A stretch of DNA of 64,000 nt, from positions 6,462 to 70,461 of the forward strand of contig JBGAOA010000007.1 of NCBI GenBank assembly GCA_044222065.1, read 5' to 3'. The first letter of the stretch is position 1, and every line of letters starts with the position of its first letter. The notes beneath the pieces were generated by a model that searched no databases, was not told the origin of the DNA, and was given only the letters and a program-made list of their open reading frames with translations. Below, piece after piece: positions 1,333 to 14,909 of this stretch. The stretch comes from Candidatus Eiseniibacteriota bacterium (GTDB taxonomy: Bacteria; Eisenbacteria; RBG-16-71-46). The position numbers and the translations under genes were made by a program.

Positions 1333-1480
1333 CGGTGAGGGTGGATTTCTATTGAGCGGCGCGCGCGCGGTCCCTAGGCTGAGCGGCGGCAATCCGTCCC
1401 TCGCGTGCCGCTCCGGATCCGGGCCGAAACCCTGCTTCCCTGCGCCCCGCCGACACTCGTCTCTCTTGCTGGAGGCTCCC

Positions 1481-4400
1481 GTGTCCCCATCCCTTGCCCC
1501 GCGCGTCCCACGCGCACTGTTGTCGGTTCTGCTGGCGCTGGCCGCCCTGCTTCCGGCGGCCGGAGTCCAGGCCAAGAAGGCGCCCGAGACGTCGGCGAAG
1601 CGCGCCGCGCTGCTCGCGCGGCCGCTCATGCTGCGCGACATCGAGAACGGCGGCGCGCTGCAGAAGAGCGGCGGCGCGCAGTCGAGCATCGGCACGGCGA
1701 CGGGCCGCCTGCTGCGCTACTGGCGCATGACGCCGGACCGCGGCGGCGTGTCGTCCACGGCGCCCCGCGCGATCGCCGAGTCGTACCTGACCTCGAACGC
1801 GGCGCGTCTCGGCCTCGTGGCTTCGAAGCTCGGCGACGACCTGTCGCTGTTCTCCGAGAAGGCGTCGCCGTCGGGCACGCACGTCCGCTACCAGCAGCAG
1901 GTGAACGGCGTGCCGGTGTATCGCGGCGACCTCGTGATCAAGGTGTCGAACGGCGGACAGATCTCGTCGGTGATGAACAACCTCCGTCCCGACGTGCAGA
2001 TCGACACGCAGCCGGCGTTCGACGCGAAGCGGGCGATCGAACTCGGCGCCGCGGCGATCGCGCCGACCGGGAAGGCGATCGGCACGTATCGCGCGGACCT
2101 CGAGGTGTTCGACCTCGAAGGCGGCGCGCGGCTCGGCTATCGCGTCAGCATTCCGAACGAAGATCCGATGGGCGACTGGCAGGTGTTCGTGGACGCGAAG
2201 GACGGCAAGGTTCTCGGCATCGTGGACCGCGCCCAGTACGCGGACGGCACCGGCCAGGTCTTCGATCCCGATCCGCGCAGCAAGATGAGCGACAGCTCGT
2301 TCGTGGACAGCGGCGACGCCGACTCGGCGGTGCCGTTCCCGGCCGCGTACGACATCGTGAACCTGCTCGGCATGACGTTCTCGGCCGGCACGTACTCGCT
2401 GAGCGGCCCGTACGCGCAGCTCATCGACAACGAATCGCCGACCGTGGTGCCCGTCACCGCGACGCACGCCGACAGCTTCCGCTACCAGCGCAGCCCGTCG
2501 GGCTTCGAGGACGTGATGTGCTACTGGCAGCTGGACATGAGCCAGCGCTACATCCAGAGCCTCGGCTTCACGAACGTGAACAACCGCGTGCAGGGCGTGG
2601 ACTCGCACGGCCTCTCCGGCGCGGACAACTCGCATTACGTTCCTTCGACCGGAAACCTCGCGTTCGGCGAGGGCGGCATCGACGACGACGAAGACGCGGA
2701 CGTGATCTGGCACGAGTACGGCCACTCCATCCAGGACAACATCGTTCCGGGCTGGGGCGGCGGCCAGGAAGGCGCGATGGGCGAGGGCTTCGGTGACTAC
2801 TGGGCCCACTCGTACTCGCTGTTCAAGGCCCCGGGATTCCAGCCGCTGCACGTGTTCACGTGGGACGGCAACGGCGAGACGTGGCCGGGCCGCGTCGCGA
2901 TCGACGTGACGATGCACTATCCCGAGAACTGCTGCGGTGAGGTGCACGATTCCGGCACGCTGTGGTGCTCGGGCCTCATCGACGCCTACAACTCGGTCGG
3001 CCGGACGGCCATGGACCGCATCGTGCTCGACCACCACTTCGCCCTCGGCACGAGTGCGACGATGGCGGACGCGGCGGCGCAGATCATCCAGTCCGACTTC
3101 GACCTCTACGGCGGCGCGCACGTCTCGACGCTCGTCGCGAAGTTCGGGTTCTGGGGCTTCGTGAACCCGGCCGACTTCGTCCCGACGATCACGCACACCC
3201 CGCGCACGGACACCGAGGCTTCCGGCCCGTACGCGATCGTCGCGACGATCACGTCGGTGCAGCCGCTCGACCCGACGTCTCTCAAGGTCCACTACGGCGT
3301 CGGCGCCTTCACGAACGAAGTCACGATGACGCCGACCGCGAATCCGAACGAATACTCCGCTTCGATTCCGGATCTCGGTTCGAACGTCGACATCCGCTAC
3401 TACATCATCGCGAGCGACAACGTGGGCGGCACGTCCACGCACCCGGTCAATGCTCCGACCGCGTTCCACCAGTTCCACGTCGGTCCGGACGTGACGGCGC
3501 CGGTGATCACGCACACGGCGATCGGCAACTTCCCGCAGATCCAGTGGCCGGCGACGGTCAACGTGACCGTGACGGACAACCTCGGCGTGAACGCCGACTC
3601 GGTGCGCGTGAACTGGCAGAAGAACGGCGTTTCGCGCGGCGCGTTCTACCTGACGCGCGTCGGCCTCACGAACAACTGGACCGGCGCGTTCCCGGGCGTC
3701 AACGCGGACGTGTCGGTGGGCGACGTGATCGACTACCGCATCACGGCGCGCGACGTGGCTTCGACGCCGAACGTCGCGACGCATCCGGCGGTCGGCTTCC
3801 ACACGTTCAACATCATCGCGAGCCGCGGCACGATCCTCGTGCTCGACGACGACGAAGTGGCCTCGCACTCGGCGGCGAAGCAGCTGACGGGCGAAGAGGC
3901 GAAGGCGGCGTCGGAAGCGGCGTCGGCGAAGCCGGCCGGTCCGCAGGGCCTGTCCGCGACGAACATCGCGGCGATCCTGAACGCGCGCGGCTTCACGGCG
4001 ACGGTCGAGGCGGCGAACACCTCGAACCCGGCGACGTGGTCGAACTACCAGCTGCTCGTGTCCTCGAGCGGCGGCAACGAGGGTCCGGTCGCAAACGCGG
4101 CGTACCGCACCGCGATCGAGAACTGGGTGGCGGGCGGCGGCAAGCTGCTCGTCGAAGGCGGCGAGGTCGCCTACGACGCCGCGTCGACGCCCGGCTATCC
4201 GACGTTCGCGGCGAACGTGCTCCACACGATCGACTGGGACGCGGACAACGCCGGCGCGCTGACGCTGCTCACGCCGGGACATCCGATCGCGACGACGCCG
4301 TACGCGATTCCGTCCGGGCTGGCGATCAACTACACGGCGTTCGGCAGCGAGGACTCGTACAAGCCGGTGGCGCCCGCGTACATCGTGTACGGCGTCACGG

Positions 4401-5524
4401 CGCAAGCCGGCAACGGCGGCATCCTCGTGTACGACGACACGCCGTCGCCGCAGAGCGCGCAGATCGTCGTGTTCGGCTTCGACTTCAAGGACCTCGCCGA
4501 CGCGACCGCGGCGGCGAACCTGCTCGACAACACGGCGACCTATCTGCTGGCGTCCGAGGGCGCGCCGACCGGCGCGATCGCCGGCCAGGTGCTGCTGTCC
4601 GGCACGTTGAATCACGCCGGCACGACCGTGACGCTGTCGCCGGGCGGCGCTTCGACGACGACGGACGCTCTCGGCAACTACTCGTTCGGCAGCCTCTACC
4701 CGGCGACGTACTCCGCGAGCGTGACGCACGCGGGCTACACGTCGGGCGGCGCGTCGGGAATCGTGGTGACCGGTGTCGGAACTGCGATCGTGCCGACGAT
4801 CGTGCTGTACCCGCAGGTGACGTATCAGTACTGCGCGTCGCCGGCGCTCGCGATTCCGGACAACAACCCGACGGGCGTGACGAGCAACCAGGTCGTGAGC
4901 GACGTGTTCGCGGTGGCGGGCGTCGAGGTGGACGTGAACATCACGCACACCTATCGCGGCGACCTCACGGTGGATCTGTCCAACGGCGTGCACACGGTGC
5001 GTCTGCACAACCGCACGGGCGGCAGCGCGGACAACATCGTCGGCACGTATCCGACGACGCTCACGGTCAACGGACCGGGCGCGCTCTCGGACTTCCTCGC
5101 CGACGGCTCCGCGCACACGTGGAGCCTCAAGGTGGTGGACGCCGCGAGCATCGACGTCGGCACCCTCAATTCGTGGTGTCTGCGGCTCAAGGCGGTTCCG
5201 GATTCGAGCGGAAACGTCGACGCGGGTCCGAGCGCGCTTCCGAAGGCGTTCGCGTTCGCGCCGGTCGCGCCGAACCCGGTGCGCGGCGGCCGCACGATGC
5301 TGCACTTCGCTCTGCCGTACGCCTCGGACGCTTCGCTCGCGATCTACGACGTCAGCGGACGCCTCGTGCGTTCGGTGGTGAAGGGGTCGCTCGAGGCCGG
5401 CAACCACGACGTCCTGTGGGACGGCCGCGACGAGAGCGGGACGCTCGTGCGTCCGGGTCTCTACCTGGCGAGCTTCCGCGCGGGGTCGTTCTCGGCCGCG
5501 CGCCGGATGGTGGTCGTGAAGTAA
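1481..5524 (+). CDS. Large secreted multi-domain zinc metalloprotease (clan MA, fungalysin/thermolysin-like HEYGH) with carboxypeptidase-regulatory-like and proprotein-convertase P domains and a Por-secretion-tail-like C-terminus
   Basis: GTG start at 1481, 5 nt after GGAGG, followed by signal peptide VSPSLAPRVPRALLSVLLALAALLPAAGVQA. Zinc-binding motif WHEYGHSIQD plus downstream EGFGDYWAHS. P-domain-like segment DLTVDLSNGVHTVRLHNRTGGSADN. C-terminal tail LAIYDVSGRLVRSV...WDGRDESG...GLYLASFRAG. The opposite-strand ORF 1349..5407 is an Arg-rich artefact. Confidence 0.82.
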   Translation: MSPSLAPRVPRALLSVLLALAALLPAAGVQAKKAPETSAKRAALLARPLMLRDIENGGALQKSGGAQSSIGTATGRLLRYWRMTPDRGGVSSTAPRAIAESYLTSNAARLGLVASKLGDDLSLFSEKASPSGTHVRYQQQVNGVPVYRGDLVIKVSNGGQISSVMNNLRPDVQIDTQPAFDAKRAIELGAAAIAPTGKAIGTYRADLEVFDLEGGARLGYRVSIPNEDPMGDWQVFVDAKDGKVLGIVDRAQYADGTGQVFDPDPRSKMSDSSFVDSGDADSAVPFPAAYDIVNLLGMTFSAGTYSLSGPYAQLIDNESPTVVPVTATHADSFRYQRSPSGFEDVMCYWQLDMSQRYIQSLGFTNVNNRVQGVDSHGLSGADNSHYVPSTGNLAFGEGGIDDDEDADVIWHEYGHSIQDNIVPGWGGGQEGAMGEGFGDYWAHSYSLFKAPGFQPLHVFTWDGNGETWPGRVAIDVTMHYPENCCGEVHDSGTLWCSGLIDAYNSVGRTAMDRIVLDHHFALGTSATMADAAAQIIQSDFDLYGGAHVSTLVAKFGFWGFVNPADFVPTITHTPRTDTEASGPYAIVATITSVQPLDPTSLKVHYGVGAFTNEVTMTPTANPNEYSASIPDLGSNVDIRYYIIASDNVGGTSTHPVNAPTAFHQFHVGPDVTAPVITHTAIGNFPQIQWPATVNVTVTDNLGVNADSVRVNWQKNGVSRGAFYLTRVGLTNNWTGAFPGVNADVSVGDVIDYRITARDVASTPNVATHPAVGFHTFNIIASRGTILVLDDDEVASHSAAKQLTGEEAKAASEAASAKPAGPQGLSATNIAAILNARGFTATVEAANTSNPATWSNYQLLVSSSGGNEGPVANAAYRTAIENWVAGGGKLLVEGGEVAYDAASTPGYPTFAANVLHTIDWDADNAGALTLLTPGHPIATTPYAIPSGLAINYTAFGSEDSYKPVAPAYIVYGVTAQAGNGGILVYDDTPSPQSAQIVVFGFDFKDLADATAAANLLDNTATYLLASEGAPTGAIAGQVLLSGTLNHAGTTVTLSPGGASTTTDALGNYSFGSLYPATYSASVTHAGYTSGGASGIVVTGVGTAIVPTIVLYPQVTYQYCASPALAIPDNNPTGVTSNQVVSDVFAVAGVEVDVNITHTYRGDLTVDLSNGVHTVRLHNRTGGSADNIVGTYPTTLTVNGPGALSDFLADGSAHTWSLKVVDAASIDVGTLNSWCLRLKAVPDSSGNVDAGPSALPKAFAFAPVAPNPVRGGRTMLHFALPYASDASLAIYDVSGRLVRSVVKGSLEAGNHDVLWDGRDESGTLVRPGLYLASFRAGSFSAARRMVVVK

Positions 5525-5553
5525 CGCGGTTCCCTGCAGCCTGTCGTACGCGC

Positions 5554-5590
5554 GGCCCCCGGGGTTTCGTCCCCGGGGGCCGTTCGCGTC
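5554..5590 (+). terminator. Strong GC hairpin downstream of the protease gene; possible terminator without a clear U-tract
   Basis: GGCCCCCGGGG-TTTCGT-CCCCGGGGGCC perfect 11-bp inverted repeat. Confidence 0.4.
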
Positions 5591-5874
5591 CGCGCAGGAA
5601 GGCGTGTCCGTTCGTCAGGACGGCCGCTCGTCTGTCAGGCAGGCCCTGACGGAGCGTCGGTCAGGGCGCGGACGAACGCGTGCTCGAGGGGCACCGAAGG
5701 CGCGCCAATCGCCCGCCCGAGCGCACTGGACCGCCGTCACGATCCGGTGGAACGACCGCGGCACGCGCCATGCCATGAAGCCTCCCGACGGGATTCCGAC
5801 GGTTTCGTCCGCCTCGGCGGTCCGGCCCGGATGGCGTGCTCGCCTGCGGACTTCCTCGCGCGAAGGAGGCTGCG

Positions 5875-6492
5875 ATGCGCGAATTACGCATTCACGGGCG
5901 CGGCGGGCAGGGAGCGGTGATCGCCTCCAAGCTGCTCGCGACGGCCCTGTTTCTCGAAGGCAAGTCGGTGCAGTCGTTCCCCGCGTTCGGCGTCGAGCGC
6001 CGCGGCGCCCCGGTCGCGGCGTTCCTGCGCGTGAGCGACGGACCGATCCTGCTGCGCTGCGAAGTGACGACGCCCGACGACCTCATCGTGCTCGATCCCA
6101 CGCTCGTCCGCGCCGTGGACGTGACGTCGGGCCTGAAGGACGGCGGAGGCATCCTGATCAACGCCGACGGCGGGCCCGAATCGTTCGCGGAACTCGGGCG
6201 CCGCTTCCGAGTCGGCACCGTGAACGCGAGCGCGATCGCGCAGCGTCACGGCCTCGGCTCGCGCACCCAGCCGATCGTGAACACCGCGATCCTCGGAGCG
6301 TTCGCGACGTTCTCGGGGCTCGTTTCGCTCGAGTCCGTGTGCCGGGCGATCGCGAGCGACGTGCCGATCAAGACCGATGCGAACGTCGCCGCGGCGCGCG
6401 AAGCGGGCGCGGCCGCGCTCGTGGTCGTCGCCGGGCAGGCCGCCGCACGTGCGTTCGGCCCCGCGGGCGGACCGGAGGTGCTCCGTGCCTGA
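5875..6492 (+). CDS. porG: 2-oxoacid (pyruvate):ferredoxin oxidoreductase gamma subunit
   Basis: MRELRIHGRGGQGAVIASKLL... is a typical PorG/KorG N-terminus. GAAGGAGG RBS lies upstream of the ATG at 5875. Confidence 0.88.
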   Translation: MRELRIHGRGGQGAVIASKLLATALFLEGKSVQSFPAFGVERRGAPVAAFLRVSDGPILLRCEVTTPDDLIVLDPTLVRAVDVTSGLKDGGGILINADGGPESFAELGRRFRVGTVNASAIAQRHGLGSRTQPIVNTAILGAFATFSGLVSLESVCRAIASDVPIKTDANVAAAREAGAAALVVVAGQAAARAFGPAGGPEVLRA

Positions 6493-8320
6493 CGCGCGCG
6501 CGAACTCCGATCTGCGGCACGGCGTGCCGCCCGTGGCGGTGAGCAGCACCTCGACCCGCGTCAACAAGACCGGGTCGTGGAAGTACATCCGGCCGATCTA
6601 TCGCGACCGCGTCGCGCCCTGCAACCAGGGCTGTCCGGTCGGCATCGACATCGAGGGCTACATGAACCTCGCGCGCGAGGGGCGGGTCACGGAGGCGCGC
6701 GACCTGCTGCTGCGCGAGAACCCGCTGCCCGCGACCACGGGCCGGGTCTGCTACCACCCGTGCGAGTCGTCCTGCAATCGCGCGTCGTTCGACCAGCCGG
6801 TCGCGATCCACGCGGTCGAGCGCATGCTCGGCGACCTCGCGCTCGAAGCGCCGGTCGAACGGCCGGAGCGCACGCGCGACGAAACGGTCGCCGTCGTCGG
6901 CGCGGGCCCCGCGGGGCTCGCGTGCGCGTACCACCTCGCGCGCCTCGGCTACGGCGTCACCGTGTACGATGCCGATCCGGAGCCGGGCGGCGTGCTGCGC
7001 TGGGGCATTCCCGAGTACCGGCTTCCGAAGCGCGTGCTCGCGGGCGAGATCGCGCGCATCCGGGCGCTCGGCGTGCAGTTCGAATCGGGCGTGCGCGTCG
7101 GCCGCGACCTGCCATTCGAGGGGCTCTCGAAGCACGACGCCGTGTTCCTCGCGACCGGCGTCCACCGGAGCCGTCCGCTCGGCATCCCGGGCGAGGACTT
7201 CTCCGGCGTGTGGCGCGGACTCGAGCTGCTGCGCCGCGTGAACGCGGGCGAACGTCCGGACCTCGGCCGGCGCGTCGTCGTCGTGGGCGGAGGCAATACC
7301 GCCATGGACTGCGCGCGCACCGCCGTGCGGCTCGGCGCCGAGGTGACGGTGCTGTACCGGCGCGGCCGCGCCGAGATGCCGGCCAATCACGAAGAGGTCG
7401 AAGAGGCGCTGCACGAAGGTGTGCGGTTCGGCTTCCTCGCGGCGCCGCTCGCCGTGCTCGCGGACGAACGCGCGCCGGAAGAGGACGCGCTCGAGGCCAT
7501 CGGCGATACGTTCGGCGAGTTCGAATCGCTCGATGCGCGCCCGCGCGTCGCCGGCCTGCGCTGCATCCGCATGCAGCTCGGCGCGCCGGACGCCTCGGGT
7601 CGCCGCCGTCCCGAGCCGGTCGAGGGCTCGGACTTCACGGTGCCGTGCGACACGCTCGTGACCGCGCTCGGCGAGGACGCGGAACTCGAGTACCTGCCGA
7701 AGGAGCTCCAGACGCGCGGCGGCGCGATGCACGTAAGCCCGCTCGGGGCGACGAGCCGCACCGCGGTGTTCGCCGGCGGCGACATTACCGAGGAGCCGCA
7801 CACGGTGGCGTTCGCGATCGGCTCCGGGAAGCGCGCCGCGGTCGGCATCGACCACTACCTGCGGCTGCTGAACGGCGAGGACTCCGACGCGGTCGAGATC
7901 GGGGAGTTGCGCTTCGGACCCGAGGGCAACGTCTCGGCGACCCGCTGGCGCGACGACGACCCGGTGCTGCGCGTGGATCCGGTGAACGAGGTCGTGCGCT
8001 TCGAGGCCATCAACCCGGCGCACTTCGAGCACGCCGCGCGGCACGCGGACCGGCTGCGGCCGGCGCACGACTCCCGCCACGACTTCGGCGAAGCGAACCT
8101 CGGGCTCGCCCGCGAGGACGCGCTCGCCGAGGCGCGGCGCTGCTTCAACTGCGGCGTCTGCAACGGCTGCGAAGTGTGCCTCGTGTTCTGTCCCGACGTG
8201 GCGATCTCGCGGCGTTCGGACGGACGCTTCGACATCGCCTACGACTACTGCAAGGGCTGCGGCGTGTGCGCCGAGGAGTGCCCGCGCGGTTCGATCGTGA
8301 TGACGCGGGAGGGACTGTGA
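6485..8320 (+). CDS. Fusion protein: GltD-like NAD(P)H/FAD oxidoreductase (N-terminal Fe-S, FAD and NAD Rossmann motifs) joined to a C-terminal 2x[4Fe-4S] ferredoxin (PorD-like delta subunit)
   Basis: GTG at 6485 overlaps the porG stop. The N-terminal Cys cluster CNQGCPVG...CYHPCESSCNRA resembles GltD. Dinucleotide-binding motifs VAVVGAGPAGLACA and VVVVGGGNTAMDCA are present. The C-terminus carries CFNCGVCNGCEVCLVFCP...CKGCGVCAEECP, two ferredoxin CxxCxxCxxxCP motifs. It sits in the canonical porD position. Confidence 0.8.
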   Translation: MPDARANSDLRHGVPPVAVSSTSTRVNKTGSWKYIRPIYRDRVAPCNQGCPVGIDIEGYMNLAREGRVTEARDLLLRENPLPATTGRVCYHPCESSCNRASFDQPVAIHAVERMLGDLALEAPVERPERTRDETVAVVGAGPAGLACAYHLARLGYGVTVYDADPEPGGVLRWGIPEYRLPKRVLAGEIARIRALGVQFESGVRVGRDLPFEGLSKHDAVFLATGVHRSRPLGIPGEDFSGVWRGLELLRRVNAGERPDLGRRVVVVGGGNTAMDCARTAVRLGAEVTVLYRRGRAEMPANHEEVEEALHEGVRFGFLAAPLAVLADERAPEEDALEAIGDTFGEFESLDARPRVAGLRCIRMQLGAPDASGRRRPEPVEGSDFTVPCDTLVTALGEDAELEYLPKELQTRGGAMHVSPLGATSRTAVFAGGDITEEPHTVAFAIGSGKRAAVGIDHYLRLLNGEDSDAVEIGELRFGPEGNVSATRWRDDDPVLRVDPVNEVVRFEAINPAHFEHAARHADRLRPAHDSRHDFGEANLGLAREDALAEARRCFNCGVCNGCEVCLVFCPDVAISRRSDGRFDIAYDYCKGCGVCAEECPRGSIVMTREGL

Positions 8321-9483
8321 AGAAAGTCATCGTGGGCAACCACGCCGTCTCGTGGGGCGTCGCGCTCGCGCGCGCCGAAGTCATCGCCGCGTATCCGATC
8401 ACGCCGCAGACGCAGATCGTCGAGGAGCTGGCCGAGATGACGGACGACGGCCGGCTGAACGCACGCTTCATCAAGGTCGAGTCCGAGCACTCCGCGATGG
8501 CGGCGTGCATCGGCGCCTCGGCCGCGGGCGTGCGCGCGTTCACGGCCACGTCCTCACAGGGCCTGCTGCTCATGCACGAACTGCTGCACTGGGCGGGCCT
8601 CGGACGGCTGCCGATCGTGATGGCCGACATCAATCGCGCGGTCGCTCCCGGCTGGAACATCTGGACCGACCAGAACGACACGCTCGCCCAGCGCGACACG
8701 GGCTGGGTGCAGCTCTACTGCGAGAACAACCAGGAAGTGCTCGACACGACCGTGCAGGCGTTCAAGCTCGCCGAGCGCGTCGGGCTGCCGGTGATGATCG
8801 TGCTCGACGCGTTCTTCCTGTCGCACACGTCCGAGCCGGTGGACATCCCGGACGCCGCGGACGTGGACGCGTTCCTGCCGAAGCGCGACGCCGCGCTCAA
8901 GCTCGACACCGCGGACCCGCACGCGTTCGGCGCGCTGACGACGCCGGCCGTGTACATGGAGATGCGGCTGCGCCAGCAGGAGGCCTTCGACGGCGTGCCG
9001 GATGCCTACCGCGCGATCGACGCGGAGTGGGCCGCGCGCTTCGGGCGCTCGTGGTCGCCGGTCGAGGCCTATCGCTGCGACGGGGCGGACACGGTGCTCG
9101 TCACGTCCGGGACCGTGACCTCGACCGCGCGCCACGTCGTGAACGAGCGGCGCGCGCGCGGCGAGAAGGTCGGCCTCGTGAAGGTGAAGATGTTCCGGCC
9201 CTTCCCGACGCACCTCCTGCGCGAGACGCTCGCCGGGATCCCGCGCGTCGCGGTGCTCGATCGCAACATCTCGCCGGGGCACGGCGGGATCTTCGCCGAG
9301 GAGCTGCGTTCGTCGCTCTACGACCTCGCGGACTGGCTGCGCCCGCGCGTGGACGGCTACATCGTCGGGCTCGGCGGGCGCGACGTGACGCCGGCCGTGA
9401 TCGAGGAGTGCCTCGACCGCACCCGCGCGAAGGCGGCGTCGAGTTCGGTCCGGGAAGACCAGTGGGTGGGGGTGAAGCCATGA
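8317..9483 (+). CDS. porA: 2-oxoacid:ferredoxin oxidoreductase alpha subunit
   Basis: GTG at 8317 overlaps the upstream stop (GTGA). VKKVIVGNHAVSWGVALARAEVIAAYPITPQTQIVEEL is a typical PorA N-terminus. Confidence 0.9.
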   Translation: MKKVIVGNHAVSWGVALARAEVIAAYPITPQTQIVEELAEMTDDGRLNARFIKVESEHSAMAACIGASAAGVRAFTATSSQGLLLMHELLHWAGLGRLPIVMADINRAVAPGWNIWTDQNDTLAQRDTGWVQLYCENNQEVLDTTVQAFKLAERVGLPVMIVLDAFFLSHTSEPVDIPDAADVDAFLPKRDAALKLDTADPHAFGALTTPAVYMEMRLRQQEAFDGVPDAYRAIDAEWAARFGRSWSPVEAYRCDGADTVLVTSGTVTSTARHVVNERRARGEKVGLVKVKMFRPFPTHLLRETLAGIPRVAVLDRNISPGHGGIFAEELRSSLYDLADWLRPRVDGYIVGLGGRDVTPAVIEECLDRTRAKAASSSVREDQWVGVKP

Positions 9484-10376
9484 GCCAGATCTCGTTCAAG
9501 GACGCGGTCCCGCAGATCGAGCTGCTCGACTCCGGGCACCTCGCCTGTCCGGGCTGCGGCGCCGCGCTCGCGATGCGCATGGTGCTGAAGGCGCTCGGCG
9601 AGAAGACCGTCGTCGCCCTGCCCGCGTGCTGCTGGAGCATCATCGCGGGGCCGTACCCGCAGTCGTCGCTCAAGGTGCCGCTCTACCACACGGCGTTCGA
9701 GACCGGCGCGTCGGCGGCCTCGGGCATCAAGGCGGCGCTCGTCGCGCGCGGCGACACCGAGACCACGGTCGTCGCCTGGGCGGGCGACGGCGGCACGTTC
9801 GACATCGGCCTGCAGGCGCTGTCGGGCGCGGCCGAGCGGAACGAGGACATCCTGTACGTCTGCTACGACAACGAGGCGTACATGAACACCGGCATCCAGC
9901 GTTCGTCGGCGACGCCGTTCGGCGCGTGGACGACGACGACGCCCGGCCAGCACACGAAGTCGCATCCGAAGAAGGACATTCTCGCGATCCTCGCGGCGCA
10001 CCGCATTCCGTACGCCGCGAGCGCGACGCCGGCGTATCCCGAGGACCTGATGCGCAAGGTGCAGCGCGCGAAGGCGACGCGCGGCATGCGCTTCCTGCAC
10101 CTGCTCGCGCCGTGCCCTCCCGGCTGGAAGACGGAGGACTCCGAGACGATCGAACTCGCCCGGCTCGCCGTGCAGGCGCGCGTGTTCCCGCTGCTCGAGG
10201 TCGAGAACGGCGAGACGTGGCGGCTCACGATCGAGCCGCGCGGCGACTCGGTCGCCGAGTATCTCGAACGGCAGGGCCGCTTCCGCCACCTCGGCGACGA
10301 GGCCGTGCAGGCGATCCAGGTGCAGGTGGACGCGCGCTGGCGTTCGATCGAGCGGAGGGTGAAGGACGGGGTGTAG
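9480..10376 (+). CDS. porB: 2-oxoacid:ferredoxin oxidoreductase beta subunit (thiamine-diphosphate binding)
   Basis: ATG overlaps the porA stop (ATGA). CPGCG, GDGG and YDNEAYMNTG motifs of the TPP-binding beta subunit are present. Confidence 0.9.
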   Translation: MSQISFKDAVPQIELLDSGHLACPGCGAALAMRMVLKALGEKTVVALPACCWSIIAGPYPQSSLKVPLYHTAFETGASAASGIKAALVARGDTETTVVAWAGDGGTFDIGLQALSGAAERNEDILYVCYDNEAYMNTGIQRSSATPFGAWTTTTPGQHTKSHPKKDILAILAAHRIPYAASATPAYPEDLMRKVQRAKATRGMRFLHLLAPCPPGWKTEDSETIELARLAVQARVFPLLEVENGETWRLTIEPRGDSVAEYLERQGRFRHLGDEAVQAIQVQVDARWRSIERRVKDGV

Positions 10377-10385
10377 TCCGCGGCC

Positions 10386-10772
10386 TCAGTACGACTGGTA
10401 GGACTTCTCCTCGAGCAACGTCGAGCCGAGCGCGACGTTGAGGTCGCGCTTGATCGCGGCGCGCCGGTCGTTCGTGCGGTAGACGGCGCGCGCGAGCTCG
10501 ATGAAGTCGGCGTCGAACGTGCGGGCCGCTTCCTTTTCGCGAATGCGGTCCTCGATCTCCCACAGCGTCTCGTTCACGCGCTTGAGGTCGGCGACGAGCG
10601 CCGCGACGTCTCGGCTCGCGAGCGGCGAAGCCGCCCACGTCGCGCGCAGCAGCTCGAGTTCGCGCCGGACGTTCTCGAGTTTGGCCGGGTCGGTGATGCG
10701 CTCGGACTTGATCTCGAGGATCGTGAGCTTGTCGAGGAACTCGCCGGGCGAAGTCTGAACGTTGAGCAGCAT
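10386..10772 (-). CDS. Conserved hypothetical protein (128 aa, predicted coiled-coil)
   Basis: ATG at 10772 (MLLNVQTSPGEFLDKLTILEIKSERI...). The longer ORF extension upstream is Arg-rich and was rejected. Convergent with porB. Confidence 0.55.
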   Translation of the reverse strand: MLLNVQTSPGEFLDKLTILEIKSERITDPAKLENVRRELELLRATWAASPLASRDVAALVADLKRVNETLWEIEDRIREKEAARTFDADFIELARAVYRTNDRRAAIKRDLNVALGSTLLEEKSYQSY

Positions 10773-10961
10773 CGGCGCGGGTCTCCGTGGGGCCGTGGAA
10801 GGCAGCGGGCGCGCGCAGCATAGCGGGCCGCGGCGGCCGCGTGCACGCCCGCGCCGCGCGGAAATCCCTTGCGGCCGGCCGGGGGAGCGGGCAGCGTGGG
10901 CGCGCCCCGCGCGGCCCGTCGGACCGCGCCGCACGGTCGCCTCGAGCGAAAGGAGCCCCCG

Positions 10962-11402
10962 ATGTCGCAGGCCGTCTCGCCGTCCATTCCGTCGAGTCCG
11001 ACGTCCGTCGCCTCGGGGCTCGCTCGCCTCGCGCTCGTTGCCGCCGCGTTGGCGACCGCGCTCGCGGCGCTGTGGCTGCTCTCGACGGTCGCGACCGTGC
11101 TGCCCGCGCGCGATCCGGCGCGCGTGCCGTTCTGGACGACGGTGGCGGTCGCGCTGCTCGCCTACAGCGCGCTATCGCTCGGCGCGGCGTGGCGGGGTCC
11201 GCGGGCCGGCTGGCTGCGGCTCGCGCTGCTGTGGGCGTCCGTTGCGGCGGTGTTCGTCGGCGGCTTCGAGGTGGCCGAGAACCTGTCCCCGCCGCCGGGC
11301 CGGCACTTCGAGGGCTATCTCGTGCTGCTCGGCGCGATCGTCGCGGCGCACGGCGTCGCCGCGGTCGCGTGGATCGCCGGGCGGCGGCTCCGGCGCGCCT
11401 GA
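10962..11402 (+). CDS. Hypothetical small integral membrane protein
   Basis: AAGGAG RBS before the ATG at 10962. Four predicted hydrophobic helices (LARLALVAAALATALAALWLL..., TTVAVALLAYSALSLGAAW...). Confidence 0.5.
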   Translation: MSQAVSPSIPSSPTSVASGLARLALVAAALATALAALWLLSTVATVLPARDPARVPFWTTVAVALLAYSALSLGAAWRGPRAGWLRLALLWASVAAVFVGGFEVAENLSPPPGRHFEGYLVLLGAIVAAHGVAAVAWIAGRRLRRA

Positions 11403-11431
11403 TGCGCGGCGCCGCGGCTATACTGCGGCGC

Positions 11432-12745
11432 ATGACCGCTCGCCCCCGAGGCTTCGGCTTCGCCGCGTCCTGCGCGCTCGCGCTTTCGCTCGCGTGCGCA
11501 CCGCGCGCGCTGCGCGGTCCGGACGGGAACGCGTCCCCGTCCGCGATCCGGCTCATCGAGTCGCGACCGGTTGGGACCGCGCTCGGGAACCCCGCGCTCG
11601 AGGCCGCCGATCACGCGTGGCTCAACCTGATCCGCGGCTCGCAGCGCACGCTCGACATCGAGCAGTTCTACGTGTCGCGCTGGCCGGGAGAGCCGCTCGA
11701 TCCGGTGCTCGACGAGATCGGCCGCGCGGCGAAGCGCGGCGTGCGCGTGCGGCTGCTCGTGGACGCGCGCATGCATCGCACGTATCCGCGCACGGTGGAC
11801 TCGCTCGCGAACGTGCCGGGCATCGAGGTGCGGCGCATCGACTACGGCCGGCTCGCGGGCGGCGTCCAGCACGCGAAGTTCTTCGTCGTGGACGGCGCGA
11901 CCGTCGTGCTCGGGAGCCAGAACTTCGACTGGCGCGCGCTCGCGCACATCCACGAACTCGGCGTCGTGATCCTCGACCGCCGCGTCGCGGGCGCGATCGG
12001 GAAGGCGTTCGAACTCGACTGGGCAGCGGCCGCGGACACCGTGGCGCTCGCGAGCGCGGCCGCGGTGGCCGCGTCGCGGGAACACGCGCTGCCCCCGGGG
12101 CACGCGCCCTCGCCCGTGTGGCGAGTCTCGATGTCGTTCGGCGACTCGGCGCTCGTGCGCGCGAGCGCGAACCCGCTCTCGACCGTTCCCGATTCCGTGG
12201 ACTGGGACCGCGACGCGATCCAGCGCCTGATCGACGGCGCGCGCGGCGAAGTCGTCGCGGCGATGCTCAGCTACTCGATCCGCTCCCGGAGCGGCGTGGA
12301 CTCGACGCTCCACGCGGCGCTCCGGCGCGCGGCCGTGCGCGGCGTGCGCGTACGGCTCATCGTCTCCGACTGGCAGGCCGACAGCCCGAGCCTCGGCGAC
12401 CTCAAGTCGCTCGCGCGCACGCCCGGAATCGAAGTCGTGATGTCGCGCGTGCCCGAGTGGAGCGGCGGCTACATCCCGTTCGCGCGCGTCGAGCACTGCA
12501 AGTTCCTCGTCGCGGACACGCTCCAGACCTGGATCGGCACGAGCAACTGGGGGCCGGACTACTTCCACGAGTCGCGCAACGTCGGCGTGACGATCGAGAA
12601 CCGCACGATCGCGCGGCAGGCGCGCGCGACGTTCGAGACGAGCTGGACGTTCCCGAACTCGGTCCGGCTCCACCCGGATTCGACCTACGCCCCGCGCGTT
12701 CACGGCGAGGAGCCGCCCCCGGGGGCGAAGAAGTACGGCGGCTGA
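11432..12745 (+). CDS. Phospholipase D / cardiolipin-synthase-like family lipoprotein with two HKD motifs
   Basis: Lipoprotein signal MTARPRGFGFAASCALALSLAC. Two HxKxxxxD motifs, HAKFFVVDGATVVLGSQNF and HCKFLVADTLQTWIGTSNW. An alternative ATG lies at 11402. Confidence 0.82.
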   Translation: MTARPRGFGFAASCALALSLACAPRALRGPDGNASPSAIRLIESRPVGTALGNPALEAADHAWLNLIRGSQRTLDIEQFYVSRWPGEPLDPVLDEIGRAAKRGVRVRLLVDARMHRTYPRTVDSLANVPGIEVRRIDYGRLAGGVQHAKFFVVDGATVVLGSQNFDWRALAHIHELGVVILDRRVAGAIGKAFELDWAAAADTVALASAAAVAASREHALPPGHAPSPVWRVSMSFGDSALVRASANPLSTVPDSVDWDRDAIQRLIDGARGEVVAAMLSYSIRSRSGVDSTLHAALRRAAVRGVRVRLIVSDWQADSPSLGDLKSLARTPGIEVVMSRVPEWSGGYIPFARVEHCKFLVADTLQTWIGTSNWGPDYFHESRNVGVTIENRTIARQARATFETSWTFPNSVRLHPDSTYAPRVHGEEPPPGAKKYGG

Positions 12746-12968
12746 GACGCCCGTCGGGGCCGCGATCGCCGCGCCCGGGAAATAGCCTGCGACTCGCGCG
12801 TGCGCCCGGCATCAGAGGCCGACACGCGGCCGACGGAGGCCCCGGAGCCGCGTCCCCGACCATGAACTTCACGCACCTCCAGATGTGTTGTGGCTGTTGC
12901 GCTCCGCACGCGCGGAGGGCCGGTCGCACCGTATCCGGAAGCTGCTGACGAAGAGCCGGAAAGCCGGA

Positions 12969-13010
12969 GCGCAACGCCCACCGCAAACGCGGTGGGCGTT
13001 TTCGTTTCCG
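12969..13010 (+). promoter_or_regulatory. Terminator-like hairpin with U-tract lying 18 nt upstream of the cysteine-synthase start; either a PLD terminator or a leader attenuator
   Basis: GCCCACCGC-AAAC-GCGGTGGGC followed by GTTTTCGTTTCC, then the GAGGAG RBS and the ATG at 13024. An additional hairpin CTCCGC-ACG-GCGGAG lies at about 12903. Confidence 0.45.
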
Positions 13011-13023
13011 ATCGAGGAGTCCG

Positions 13024-13989
13024 ATGGACCACGCGAATCGCGTTTACGACGACGTGCTGCAGACGCTGCCCGGTCCCGACAACCCGTCGCCGATGGTACG
13101 GCTGCGGCGGGTCGTGGCGGACGGCGGACTCGAGCTGTTCGCGAAGCTCGAGTGGATGAACCCGTTCGGCTCGGTGAAGGACCGCGCGGCGTCGTACCTG
13201 CTGCGCGACCTGGTCGAACGGGGCGAGCTGTCGGGCGAGCGGGGCGTCGTCGAGCCGACTTCGGGCAACACCGGAATCAGCATGGCCGCGATCGCGGCGG
13301 CCTACGGCGTGCCGATGCGCGCCGTCGTGCCGAACAAGGTGCCGCTCGAGAAGAAGGTGCTCCTCAAGATCGCGGGCGCCGAACTCGACGTCGTGAACGA
13401 CAACCTGTGCCCGAGCCCGGGAATGGGGGAGGGCTCGATCGGCCTCGCGAAGACGCGCGCCAGGGCCGAACGCGGGCGCTACGCGATGCCGAACCAGTAC
13501 GAGAACGACTTGAACGTGCGCGCCCACTACGAGACGACGGCGCCCGAGATCTGGAAGCAGACGGGCGGAAGGGTCACGCACCTGTTCGTCTCGCTCGGCA
13601 CGTCCGGCACCGCGATCGGGTGCGCGCGGTTCTTCCGCGACCGCGGCGCGAACGTGAAGGTCGTCGCCGTGCAGCCGAGCGAGGGCCACGACGTGCCGGG
13701 GCTGCGCAACCTGTCGGAGCTCGGCGTGTCGAAGCTGTTCGACCGCTCGCTGATCGACGAACTGATCGAAGTGCCCTACGAGCTCGCGTACACGCGCGCG
13801 CTCGAACTCGCGCGCCGCGAGGGTCTGCTCGCGGGGCCGAGTTCCGGGCTGATCCTCGAGGGCGCGCGCCGGGTCGCCGAACGCGGGGACCGCGGACTCG
13901 GCGTGCTGATCTTCCCCGACAACGCCTTCAAGTACGTCTCGAACTTCGTGAAGCACGCGCCGGAACTGGCCGAGGGAACGACGCCCTGA
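13024..13989 (+). CDS. Cysteine synthase family PLP-dependent enzyme (fold type II; CysK/CysM-like)
   Basis: SVKDRAA PLP-lysine motif, GNTG and GTSGT glycine loops. 321 aa with no CBS domains. Confidence 0.82.
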   Translation: MDHANRVYDDVLQTLPGPDNPSPMVRLRRVVADGGLELFAKLEWMNPFGSVKDRAASYLLRDLVERGELSGERGVVEPTSGNTGISMAAIAAAYGVPMRAVVPNKVPLEKKVLLKIAGAELDVVNDNLCPSPGMGEGSIGLAKTRARAERGRYAMPNQYENDLNVRAHYETTAPEIWKQTGGRVTHLFVSLGTSGTAIGCARFFRDRGANVKVVAVQPSEGHDVPGLRNLSELGVSKLFDRSLIDELIEVPYELAYTRALELARREGLLAGPSSGLILEGARRVAERGDRGLGVLIFPDNAFKYVSNFVKHAPELAEGTTP

Positions 13990-14036
13990 CGTCGGAACGC
14001 GGGGACCGCGAGCGGTCCCGTAGGAGGACACGCACC

Positions 14037-14909
14037 ATGAGCGGATACGCGCATCCCGAAGCACTCGTCACGACCGACTGGGTCCGGGCGCATCTCGGCG
14101 ATCCGAACGTGAAGGTGGTCGAGGTGGACGTGGACACCCAGGCCTACGAAGCGGGCCACATCCGCGGCGCCGTGGCGCTCAACTGGCAGACCGAGCTGCA
14201 GGATCTGCTGACGCGCGACATCGTGTCGAAGGCCGAGTTCGAAGCGCTGCTCGGCCGGAACGGCATCCGCGCCGAGGACACCGTCGTGCTCTACGGGGAC
14301 CACAACAACTGGTTCGCGGCGTACGCGTTCTGGCTGTTCAAGATCTACGGGCATCGGGACGTCCGACTGATGAACGGCGGGCGCGTGAAGTGGCTCGCCG
14401 AGGACGACAAGGAACTTGTCGTGGACCGCACCGCCGTGTCGCCGTCGCGCTACGTCGCGGGGGCGCCGGACCTGACGCTGCGCGCGCGCGTGCTCGACGT
14501 GCTGCAGTCGCAGGAGGGGCGAACGCACAACCTCGTGGACGTACGCAGCCCGGACGAGTTTACGGGCAAGGTCATCGCGCCTCCGGGCATGAACGAGACC
14601 GCGCAGCGGGCGGGCCACGTGCCCGGGGCGAAGAGCGTGCCGTGGTCCTCGGCCGTGAACGCGGACGGGACGTTCAAGGGCGCGGAGGAGCTGCGCGCGA
14701 TCTACCTGGAGCGCGCGGCGCTCGATCCCGCGAAGCCGACGATCGCGTACTGCCGCATCGGCGAGCGCTCGAGCCATACGTGGTTCGTGCTCCGCTACCT
14801 GCTCGGACTCCCGGACGTCCGCAACTACGACGGCTCGTGGACCGAGTACGGCTCGATGGTGGGGCTGCCCATCGAACGCGACGCGCCCGTCGCCGTGACG
14901 GTCGCCTGA
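14037..14909 (+). CDS. sseA: Thiosulfate / 3-mercaptopyruvate sulfurtransferase (tandem rhodanese domains)
   Basis: AGGAGG RBS before the ATG at 14037. Active-site CRIGERS loop, and an overall SseA/TST-like sequence. Confidence 0.85.
   Translation: MSGYAHPEALVTTDWVRAHLGDPNVKVVEVDVDTQAYEAGHIRGAVALNWQTELQDLLTRDIVSKAEFEALLGRNGIRAEDTVVLYGDHNNWFAAYAFWLFKIYGHRDVRLMNGGRVKWLAEDDKELVVDRTAVSPSRYVAGAPDLTLRARVLDVLQSQEGRTHNLVDVRSPDEFTGKVIAPPGMNETAQRAGHVPGAKSVPWSSAVNADGTFKGAEELRAIYLERAALDPAKPTIAYCRIGERSSHTWFVLRYLLGLPDVRNYDGSWTEYGSMVGLPIERDAPVAVTVA

Follow-up and report, generated by a model that had tools for sequence, protein, structure and literature searches.

We analysed a 64 000-nucleotide stretch of Candidatus Eiseniibacteriota DNA (contig JBGAOA010000007.1; 'the window', G+C ∼71%). 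At 5875–10376 it carries four tightly packed plus-strand genes that are predicted to encode a 2-oxoacid oxidoreductase of the POR (pyruvate) or VOR (branched-chain 2-oxoacid) type, in which the ferredoxin-like delta subunit PorD is part of a much larger flavoprotein fusion. The genes are:

5875–6492, + strand: porG, gamma subunit of a POR/VOR-type 2-oxoacid oxidoreductase; 205 aa, 20.9 kDa, ATG start
6485–8320, + strand: fusion gene, a PorD split by a permuted NfnL/GltD-like module for flavin adenine dinucleotide (FAD) and NAD(P)H; 611 aa, 66.3 kDa, GTG start
8317–9483, + strand: porA, alpha subunit; 388 aa, 42.5 kDa, GTG start
9480–10376, + strand: porB, beta subunit, binding thiamine pyrophosphate (TPP); 298 aa, 32.4 kDa, ATG start

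Each stop codon overlaps the next start: porG with the fusion in GTGCCTGA (6485–6492), the fusion with porA in GTGA (8317–8320) and porA with porB in ATGA (9480–9483). These overlaps were already reported in the initial annotation of the locus, which took the genes to be translationally coupled, and identical overlaps are seen again in related loci. Shine–Dalgarno-like purine runs lie 5–7 nt before three of the starts (AAGGAGG at 5863–5869, preceding the porG ATG; GGAGG at 6474–6478; GGGAGGG at 8307–8313) and, together with the overlapping junctions, make translational coupling credible. The fusion frame consists of 611 codons with no internal stop and ends in TGA. A scan of 5400–11000 found no sigma-70-like promoter or intrinsic terminator around the operon, and no tRNA gene or Rfam family at gathering threshold was found across the whole window. 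Nor does the window hold, elsewhere, another porD, ferredoxin-like delta gene or 2-oxoacid:ferredoxin oxidoreductase (OFOR) gene.

Family assignment of the four subunits

The alpha, beta and gamma components are all co-encoded. PorG matches PF01558 (E = 4 × 10−36) and the PorC_KorC model TIGR02175 (183 bits, cut-off 81). PorA contains POR_N (E = 4 × 10−74) and PFOR_II (E = 4 × 10−26), and its best PDB match is 9bt4_B (E = 1 × 10−91). PorB contains TPP_enzyme_C (E = 9 × 10−24) and has cysteines C23, C26, C50/51 and C212, the usual set of four, which by analogy with PFOR structures would be the ligands of the TPP-proximal [4Fe-4S] cluster. The best NCBIfam match of PorA is PorA_Arch (448.7 bits, cut-off 550), with VorA at 391.6 bits, and PorB gives 398.1 bits with the VOR-type beta model NF008818 and 365.7 bits with the PorB model (cut-off 405 for both). 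Because the alpha and beta subunits score just under the equivalog cut-offs of both classes, the substrate is left between the two. The four genes most likely belong to the POR/VOR clade, with pyruvate or a branched-chain 2-oxoacid as substrate.

The delta slot of the porG–porD–porA–porB order is filled by the 611-residue fusion, as initially annotated, and Pfam and NCBIfam matches on all four genes bear this out. Pfam places Fer4_20 at residues 44–121 (E = 1 × 10−20, matching only from profile position 30), Pyr_redox_2 at residues 134–∼460 (E = 2 × 10−30, with Pyr_redox and NAD_binding_8 also matching) and a 4Fe-4S dicluster domain at residues 558–606. Two Rossmann motifs are present, GAGPAG (139–144) and GGGNTA (268–273). 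The C-terminus had been read as a 2×[4Fe-4S] delta ferredoxin, and residues 557–609 indeed pass the NCBIfam model TIGR02179 (PorD_KorD; 66.6 bits, cut-off 60.05), with PorD_Arch matching this C-terminal core at E = 1 × 10−21. The whole fusion scores 555.7 bits against NF009410 (PRK12771; cut-off 516), in two stretches; this family carries no name beyond 'NAD(P)-binding protein'.

Public records for relatives use the names 'NAD(P)-binding protein', 'FAD-dependent oxidoreductase', 'glutamate synthase' and 'delta subunit'. Although one of these names, and matches to TIGR01316 and TIGR01318 at E below 1 × 10−80, might suggest a misannotated glutamate synthase small subunit, or gltD and porD joined by a frameshift or assembly artefact, we regard this as very improbable. 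All glutamate synthase models score far under their cut-offs (TIGR01316, 337 bits against 472; TIGR01318, 283 against 483) and there is no gltB near the operon or in the window. The small subunit of glutamate synthase and the large subunit of NfnSL were accordingly rejected as candidates, there being no partner gene for either in the window or in related loci. An artefact is refuted by full-length conservation among homologues: hundreds of independent assemblies keep the architecture, and the NF009410 model spans such fusions from end to end.

A PorD-like protein split by a permuted NfnL-like module

The initial annotation described an N-terminal region of ∼480 residues resembling GltD followed by a ferredoxin. 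The likeness to GltD stands, on the evidence of Fer4_20, Pyr_redox_2 and the two Rossmann motifs, but the first ∼40 residues are PorD-like and the GltD-like module is circularly permuted. Likewise, a GltD/NfnL flavoprotein is joined to a PorD ferredoxin, but PorD is split by an insertion and not replaced or prefixed. The parts follow in this order:

6545–6607, + strand: PorD N-terminal arm, residues ∼21–41, TSTRVNKTGSWKYIRPIYRD; PorD_Arch match, gain in chimera
6614–6847, + strand: NfnL/GltD-type Fe-S domain, second part; Fer4_20 profile positions 30–110; C46, C50, C89, C93, C97 and E112
6884–7864, + strand: FAD and NAD(P)H Rossmann domains, residues 134–460; GAGPAG 139–144, GGGNTA 268–273, YRR 291–293
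8081–8152, + strand: displaced NfnL/GltD Fe-S head, residues 533–556, DFGEANLGLAREDALAEARRCFNC; provides C553 and C556
8153–8311, + strand: PorD 2×[4Fe-4S] core, residues 557–609; C559/562/565/569 and C589/592/595/599

The first CxxC of the Fer4_20 domain is missing at the N-terminus of the fusion, where the match opens at PC46xxxC50P. Residues 25–37 (VNKTGSWKYIRP) instead resemble the N-terminal arm of PorD, and the N-terminus alone matches PorD_Arch profile positions 10–38 (E = 4 × 10−4). A segment resembling the GltD/NfnL head is found at residues 533–556, immediately before the PorD cluster motif.

This interleaved topology was tested with chimeric sequences in which the separated pieces were rejoined and scored against profiles and structures. 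Joining residues 1–41 to 554–611 raised the PorD_Arch score from 67.4 to 93.7 bits, with coverage extending from 28–84 to 11–84 of 85 profile positions, and the TIGR02179 score from 65.0 to 85.8 bits (positions 4–77 of 78). The same chimera is colinear with residues 11–82 of 9bt4_G, the delta subunit of a solved pyruvate:ferredoxin oxidoreductase (PFOR), and scores 78.8 bits against 57 for the native fusion (native E = 1 × 10−14). Conversely, joining 516–557 to 44–125 raised the Fer4_20 score from 66.3 to 93.4 bits and the coverage from 30–110 to 3–110 of 113. A longer permuted sequence, 516–557 plus 44–470, is colinear with NfnL from Thermotoga (4ylf_B, from residue 15) and Pyrococcus (5jca_L, from residue 19), the RCxxC motif included. 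The gains in bits and profile coverage, and the colinearity of the permuted alignment with NfnL, show that the fusion is built as a PorD arm, a circularly permuted NfnL-like module and a PorD ferredoxin core, rather than head to tail. A plain head-to-tail joining of GltD to PorD is ruled out by both chimeras, the NfnL alignment and the colinearity with 9bt4_G.

The insertion into PorD is thus a flavoprotein ∼510 residues long, and the modules are joined by a single cysteine-rich strand, C553xxC556xxC559xxC562xxC565xxxC569P. An AlphaFold2 model computed on the alignment of relatives gives one compact body (mean predicted local distance difference test score, pLDDT, 92.4; predicted template modelling score, pTM, 0.92), with disorder limited to the termini and residues ∼327–352. 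The latter are a clade-specific acidic insertion (ERAPEEDALEAIGDTFGEFESLDARPR; window 7463–7540; pLDDT ∼61), which divides the NF009410 match into its two stretches and is absent from a 541-aa form of the protein.

Conservation and distribution

Conservation was assessed in 62 relatives with 37–64% identity to the fusion. All 15 Fe-S cysteines (46, 50, 89, 93, 97, 553, 556, 559, 562, 565, 569, 589, 592, 595 and 599) are invariant, as is R179; E112 is present in 61 of 62, and the YRR after the second Rossmann strand in 53–55. The arm residues T29, G30, W32 and P37 are conserved at ≥94%.

Searching 5.8 billion proteins with a word index gave >7900 matches. The best 120 of these are full length without exception (571–793 aa, 58–100% identity), come from many independent assemblies and bear the source names Eisenbacteria, Gemmatimonadetes, Krumholzibacteriia and Planctomycetota; with the uninterrupted frame, this upholds the in-frame continuity of the GltD-like and ferredoxin parts. 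An exhaustive HMMER search over representatives of 50%-identity clusters gave 4777 proteins at E ≤ 1 × 10−30. Two C-terminal CxxCxxCxxxC motifs are found in 130 of the 149 best representatives (P0057 excluded). The full architecture was defined as a PorD-like arm, an NfnL module starting at PCxxxCP, the CxxCxxCxxCxxCxxxCP strand and a second dicluster motif. By this definition it is present in 116/120 close homologues and 88/149 representatives at 50% identity, or 92/149 if just one strict C-terminal CxxCxxCxxxCP is required. The split and permuted topology is a property of the whole family and not specific to the window.

The porG–fusion–porA–porB operon recurs across Eisenbacteria, Gemmatimonadota and their relatives: all seven homologues whose contigs were looked up have this order, with unrelated flanks. 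In one of the seven (L086:1595–3976, P0074, 793 aa) a PorG domain (PF01558) is also fused at the N-terminus. Such triple PorG–PorD/NfnL-like fusions were also seen in P0095 and in representatives of ∼745–780 aa such as P0154, P0170 and P0184, with a porA-like gene directly after. Two related contigs have a rubrerythrin gene upstream of the operon in divergent orientation (L085:2784–3272 and L087:2771–3262), which may hint at protection of this Fe-S enzyme from oxidative stress.

A contig scan yielded mainly generic GltD/NfnB genes, with the close Eisenbacteria and Gemmatimonadota relatives missing from the matches listed, and so gives no basis for frequencies. Among these matches a second gene order, porG–porA–porB–fusion with no separate porD, occurs in Solirubrobacterales, Frankiaceae, other Actinomycetota and a Rhodocyclaceae metagenome-assembled genome (MAG). 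Seven loci of this kind carry the 541-aa form, and the protein from one of them (L005) scores 795 bits against NF009410 over its full length. Close relatives are also found in Burkholderiales, Gallionellaceae and Sterolibacteriaceae. The N-terminal likeness of the Rhodocyclaceae MAG and Solirubrobacterales proteins suggests lateral transfer. On one Solirubrobacterales chromosome (L010) a phosphoenolpyruvate-synthase-like gene lies immediately upstream of the operon. At nine other loci a GltD/NfnL-like protein with a C-terminal ferredoxin-like segment has no adjoining POR genes; it appears that this flavoprotein cassette also works with other enzymes.

Relation to known enzymes

The closest relative of solved structure is NfnA of the NfnABC transhydrogenase, which is both the best sequence match (E = 3 × 10−113) and the best fold match (query TM-score, TMq, 0.71). 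Identity to NfnA (9n5u_A) and to NfnL (4ylf_B and 5jca_L) is 36–40%. NfnA and its counterpart StnC (PDB 9n5u, 9bov and 8oh5) share the permuted NfnL-like module, with the 'NFxE...EAxRCxxCG' piece placed after the FAD domain (9n5u_A 568–595, 9bov_A 536–569), and it is this common permutation that makes them the top matches in sequence and fold. The two differ from the fusion in their NuoG/Fdh-like scaffold, whereas the fusion ends after the PorD core, and in their NfnB/NfnC (Bfu) partners, which are not encoded at the operon. The ligand to the FAD-proximal cluster is also different, a lysine in NfnA/StnC and a glutamate (E112) in the fusion (PMC12018979). NfnL (NfnB) of NfnSL and GltD (32–40% identity) share with the fusion the Fer4_20 and FAD/NADPH domains, the Glu-ligated proximal cluster and YRR, but they are unpermuted, lack a PorD fusion and work with NfnS or GltB, which are absent here. 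On the OFOR side, archaeal-type PorABGD (PDB 9bt4) has homologous alpha, beta, gamma and delta-core components in the same gamma–delta–alpha–beta order, but not the ∼510-residue flavoprotein insertion, and the expected acceptor here is NADP+ instead of ferredoxin.

A biochemical precedent is the 2-oxoglutarate:NADP+ oxidoreductase of Azoarcus evansii, reportedly an FAD-containing enzyme of three subunits of 63, 41 and 35 kDa. These sizes are close to the 66.3, 42.5 and 32.4 kDa predicted here, where a gamma subunit of 20.9 kDa is extra. The precedent, invoked in the initial annotation, is real: in Kronen et al. 2023 (PMC10134865) the A. evansii alpha subunit is listed among GltD/NfnB homologues of 500–600 aa and placed in one clade with NsoC of Thermococcus litoralis, a protein of the NfnA type that gave our best matches, and PMC8163825 credits the NADP+-dependent enzyme to Ebenau-Jehle et al. 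2003 (J Bacteriol 185:6119). Like the enzyme predicted here, the Azoarcus OFOR passes electrons directly to NADP+ and has a GltD/NfnB-family protein, its large subunit; at our locus such a subunit is encoded with the OFOR genes. It differs in its substrate (2-oxoglutarate, against the POR/VOR-type scores found here), in gene order and in lineage, and a gamma subunit is encoded here. NF009410 fusions adjoin porG/A/B-type genes in Rhodocyclaceae and other Betaproteobacteria. Given this arrangement in Rhodocyclaceae and the NsoC-clade placement, the Azoarcus enzyme probably belongs to the same family as the fusion.

The pyruvate:NADP+ oxidoreductase of Euglena and Cryptosporidium, a fusion of PFOR with a cytochrome P450 reductase (CPR), also has an OFOR core wired to an NAD(P)+-reducing flavoprotein. 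Phenylglyoxylate:NAD+ oxidoreductase, PadEFGHI, is functionally analogous in the same way; Pad is cited in PMC5109826. In both, the flavoprotein modules are different and differently attached, making them analogues and not relatives. A Pfam search found no flavodoxin or FNR domain in the fusion, and a PadEFGHI-type enzyme was rejected, since the PadE, PadF, PadG and PadI models score far below their cut-offs.

Full-text literature searches found no description of the porD/GltD fusion itself. We believe that the splitting of PorD by a permuted NfnL cassette, and the sharing of that cassette with NfnA/StnC, have not yet been described in the papers searched.

Proposed electron path and function

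We consider it likely that the operon encodes a self-contained 2-oxoacid:NAD(P)+ oxidoreductase of the POR/VOR clade, one that works independently of ferredoxin, runs in the oxidative direction and ends in a non-bifurcating flavin. PorA and PorB would carry out the TPP-dependent oxidative decarboxylation of the 2-oxoacid to acyl-CoA and CO2. The two electrons would leave singly, first to the [4Fe-4S] cluster of PorB and from there to the two clusters of the PorD core (residues 557–609). They would then pass to a distal NfnL-type cluster (predicted ligands C46, C97, C553 and C556) and on to a proximal cluster (predicted ligands C50, C89, C93 and E112). Finally, the FAD would gather both electrons and reduce NADP+ by hydride transfer, serving as the terminal two-electron collector and not as a bifurcation site.

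The analysis shows the domains, the interleaved topology, the invariance of every ligand, the conservation of the operon and a compact predicted fold. The ligand pattern of the clusters in NfnL and dihydropyrimidine dehydrogenase (DPD), which our assignments follow, is established; for the fusion complex we infer the cluster assignments, the order of electron transfer, the preference for NADPH and the substrate. C559, the first PorD ligand, comes just three residues after C556. With the two on one strand, a short distance between the distal NfnL-type cluster and the first PorD cluster is almost unavoidable. NADPH rather than NADH is suggested by YRR, which in alignments is common to the NADPH-dependent NfnL, NfnA and GltD.

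The potentials are about −500 mV for the acyl-CoA + CO2/2-oxoacid couple and −320 mV for NADP+, so that under standard conditions the oxidation of a 2-oxoacid by NADP+ is exergonic by ∼35 kJ/mol and the reverse reaction costs about +35 kJ/mol. Because the oxidation is so strongly exergonic, the enzyme would be expected to run oxidatively, like a substitute for pyruvate dehydrogenase. The pyridine-nucleotide-linked function first proposed for the operon thus appears well founded, but the NAD(P)H-driven reductive carboxylation proposed alongside it is unlikely with NADPH alone on these textbook values.

Several points weigh against this assignment. The function of the fusion clade is predicted from sequence and operon context, and the topology is our ground for placing C553/C556 near C46/C97. 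Specificity could even be for 2-oxoglutarate, should the A. evansii enzyme be a member of the fusion family. An external ferredoxin may still gain access to the PorD clusters, and the Glu-ligated proximal cluster and invariant Arg179, which also occur in bifurcating NfnL, are compatible with bifurcation.

The ferredoxin question bears on a different design, in which a ferredoxin-linked POR/VOR carries an NADPH:ferredoxin oxidoreductase as a built-in side branch, electrons being shared between two acceptors or NADPH, alongside reduced ferredoxin, topping up the clusters for pyruvate synthesis. The intact PorD core is the usual docking module for ferredoxin, and five of the loci with GltD–dicluster proteins lacking adjacent POR genes suggest that the module can serve other partners. 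However, there is no ferredoxin gene in the operon and none is conserved in the flanks of related loci, and the insert directly abuts the first PorD cluster motif, an arrangement that points to a dedicated wire more than to an optional branch. We judge this design unlikely.

Still less probable, in our view, is an FAD that, like that of NfnL in NfnSL, bifurcates or confurcates electrons, coupling the low-potential ones from the 2-oxoacid to another donor or acceptor such as NADH/NAD+ that is reached through a separately encoded NfnS-like partner. The 36–40% identity to bifurcating NfnL would fit this, as would E112 at the proximal cluster and the invariant Arg179, both as in NfnL (PMC12018979). 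However, non-bifurcating GltD has the identical Glu and Arg features, no NfnS-like or other third-branch partner was found in the operon or in ∼14 related loci, and coupling would be unneeded for a reaction that is already strongly exergonic. Moreover, the topology of the fusion matches NfnA/StnC, whose FAD is not the bifurcation site; as set out in PMC12018979, the FAD and two [4Fe-4S] clusters of NfnABC form a non-bifurcating NADPH port that starts a single Fe-S path. A terminal flavin is favoured because this homologous FAD is non-bifurcating and because the examined loci lack an NfnS-like third branch.

Neighbouring genes

The operon is flanked by the following genes, those downstream being unrelated to it and of uncertain true start given the high GC:

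1352–5524, + strand: large predicted secreted protein of up to 1390 aa; fungalysin/thermolysin propeptide, M36-like metallopeptidase region and further domains
10386–10934, − strand: DUF6165 protein
10787–12745, + strand: two-domain PLD-like (cardiolipin-synthase-like) protein
12885–14909, + strand: tandem rhodanese protein

The upstream protein also has a carboxypeptidase-regulatory-like domain, a proprotein-convertase P domain and a C-terminal FlgD-Ig-like domain.

Implications

The fusion family is already catalogued (NF009410), is very widespread and has a biochemical precedent, and so is less novel than first implied. Looking beyond the window, we lean, by a modest degree, towards the view that these operons form a large, biochemically unexplored class of ferredoxin-independent, NADPH-producing oxidoreductases for pyruvate or branched-chain 2-oxoacids. 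Its members would stand in for pyruvate dehydrogenase in phyla of soil and sediment that are for the most part aerobic or facultative (Eisenbacteria, Gemmatimonadota, Actinomycetota and Betaproteobacteria). The class would have been born by insertion of a permuted NfnL-type 'NADPH plug' into PorD, the plug being a mobile cassette shared with the NfnABC/Stn transhydrogenases. In a more radical variant of this class, the Glu-ligated flavin site may be bifurcating or confurcating.

If this is true, many uncultured and soil lineages are being mis-scored in metabolic reconstructions. The gene set 'porABDG' is currently taken as a marker of ferredoxin-dependent, anaerobic-type pyruvate metabolism, and even of reductive carboxylation, whereas the fusion form would make NADPH in an essentially irreversible reaction. 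The topology also provides an example of the splicing of a two-cluster NADPH–flavin cassette into a ferredoxin domain, which should help in understanding how redox enzymes evolve by modules and in engineering OFORs linked to NADPH.

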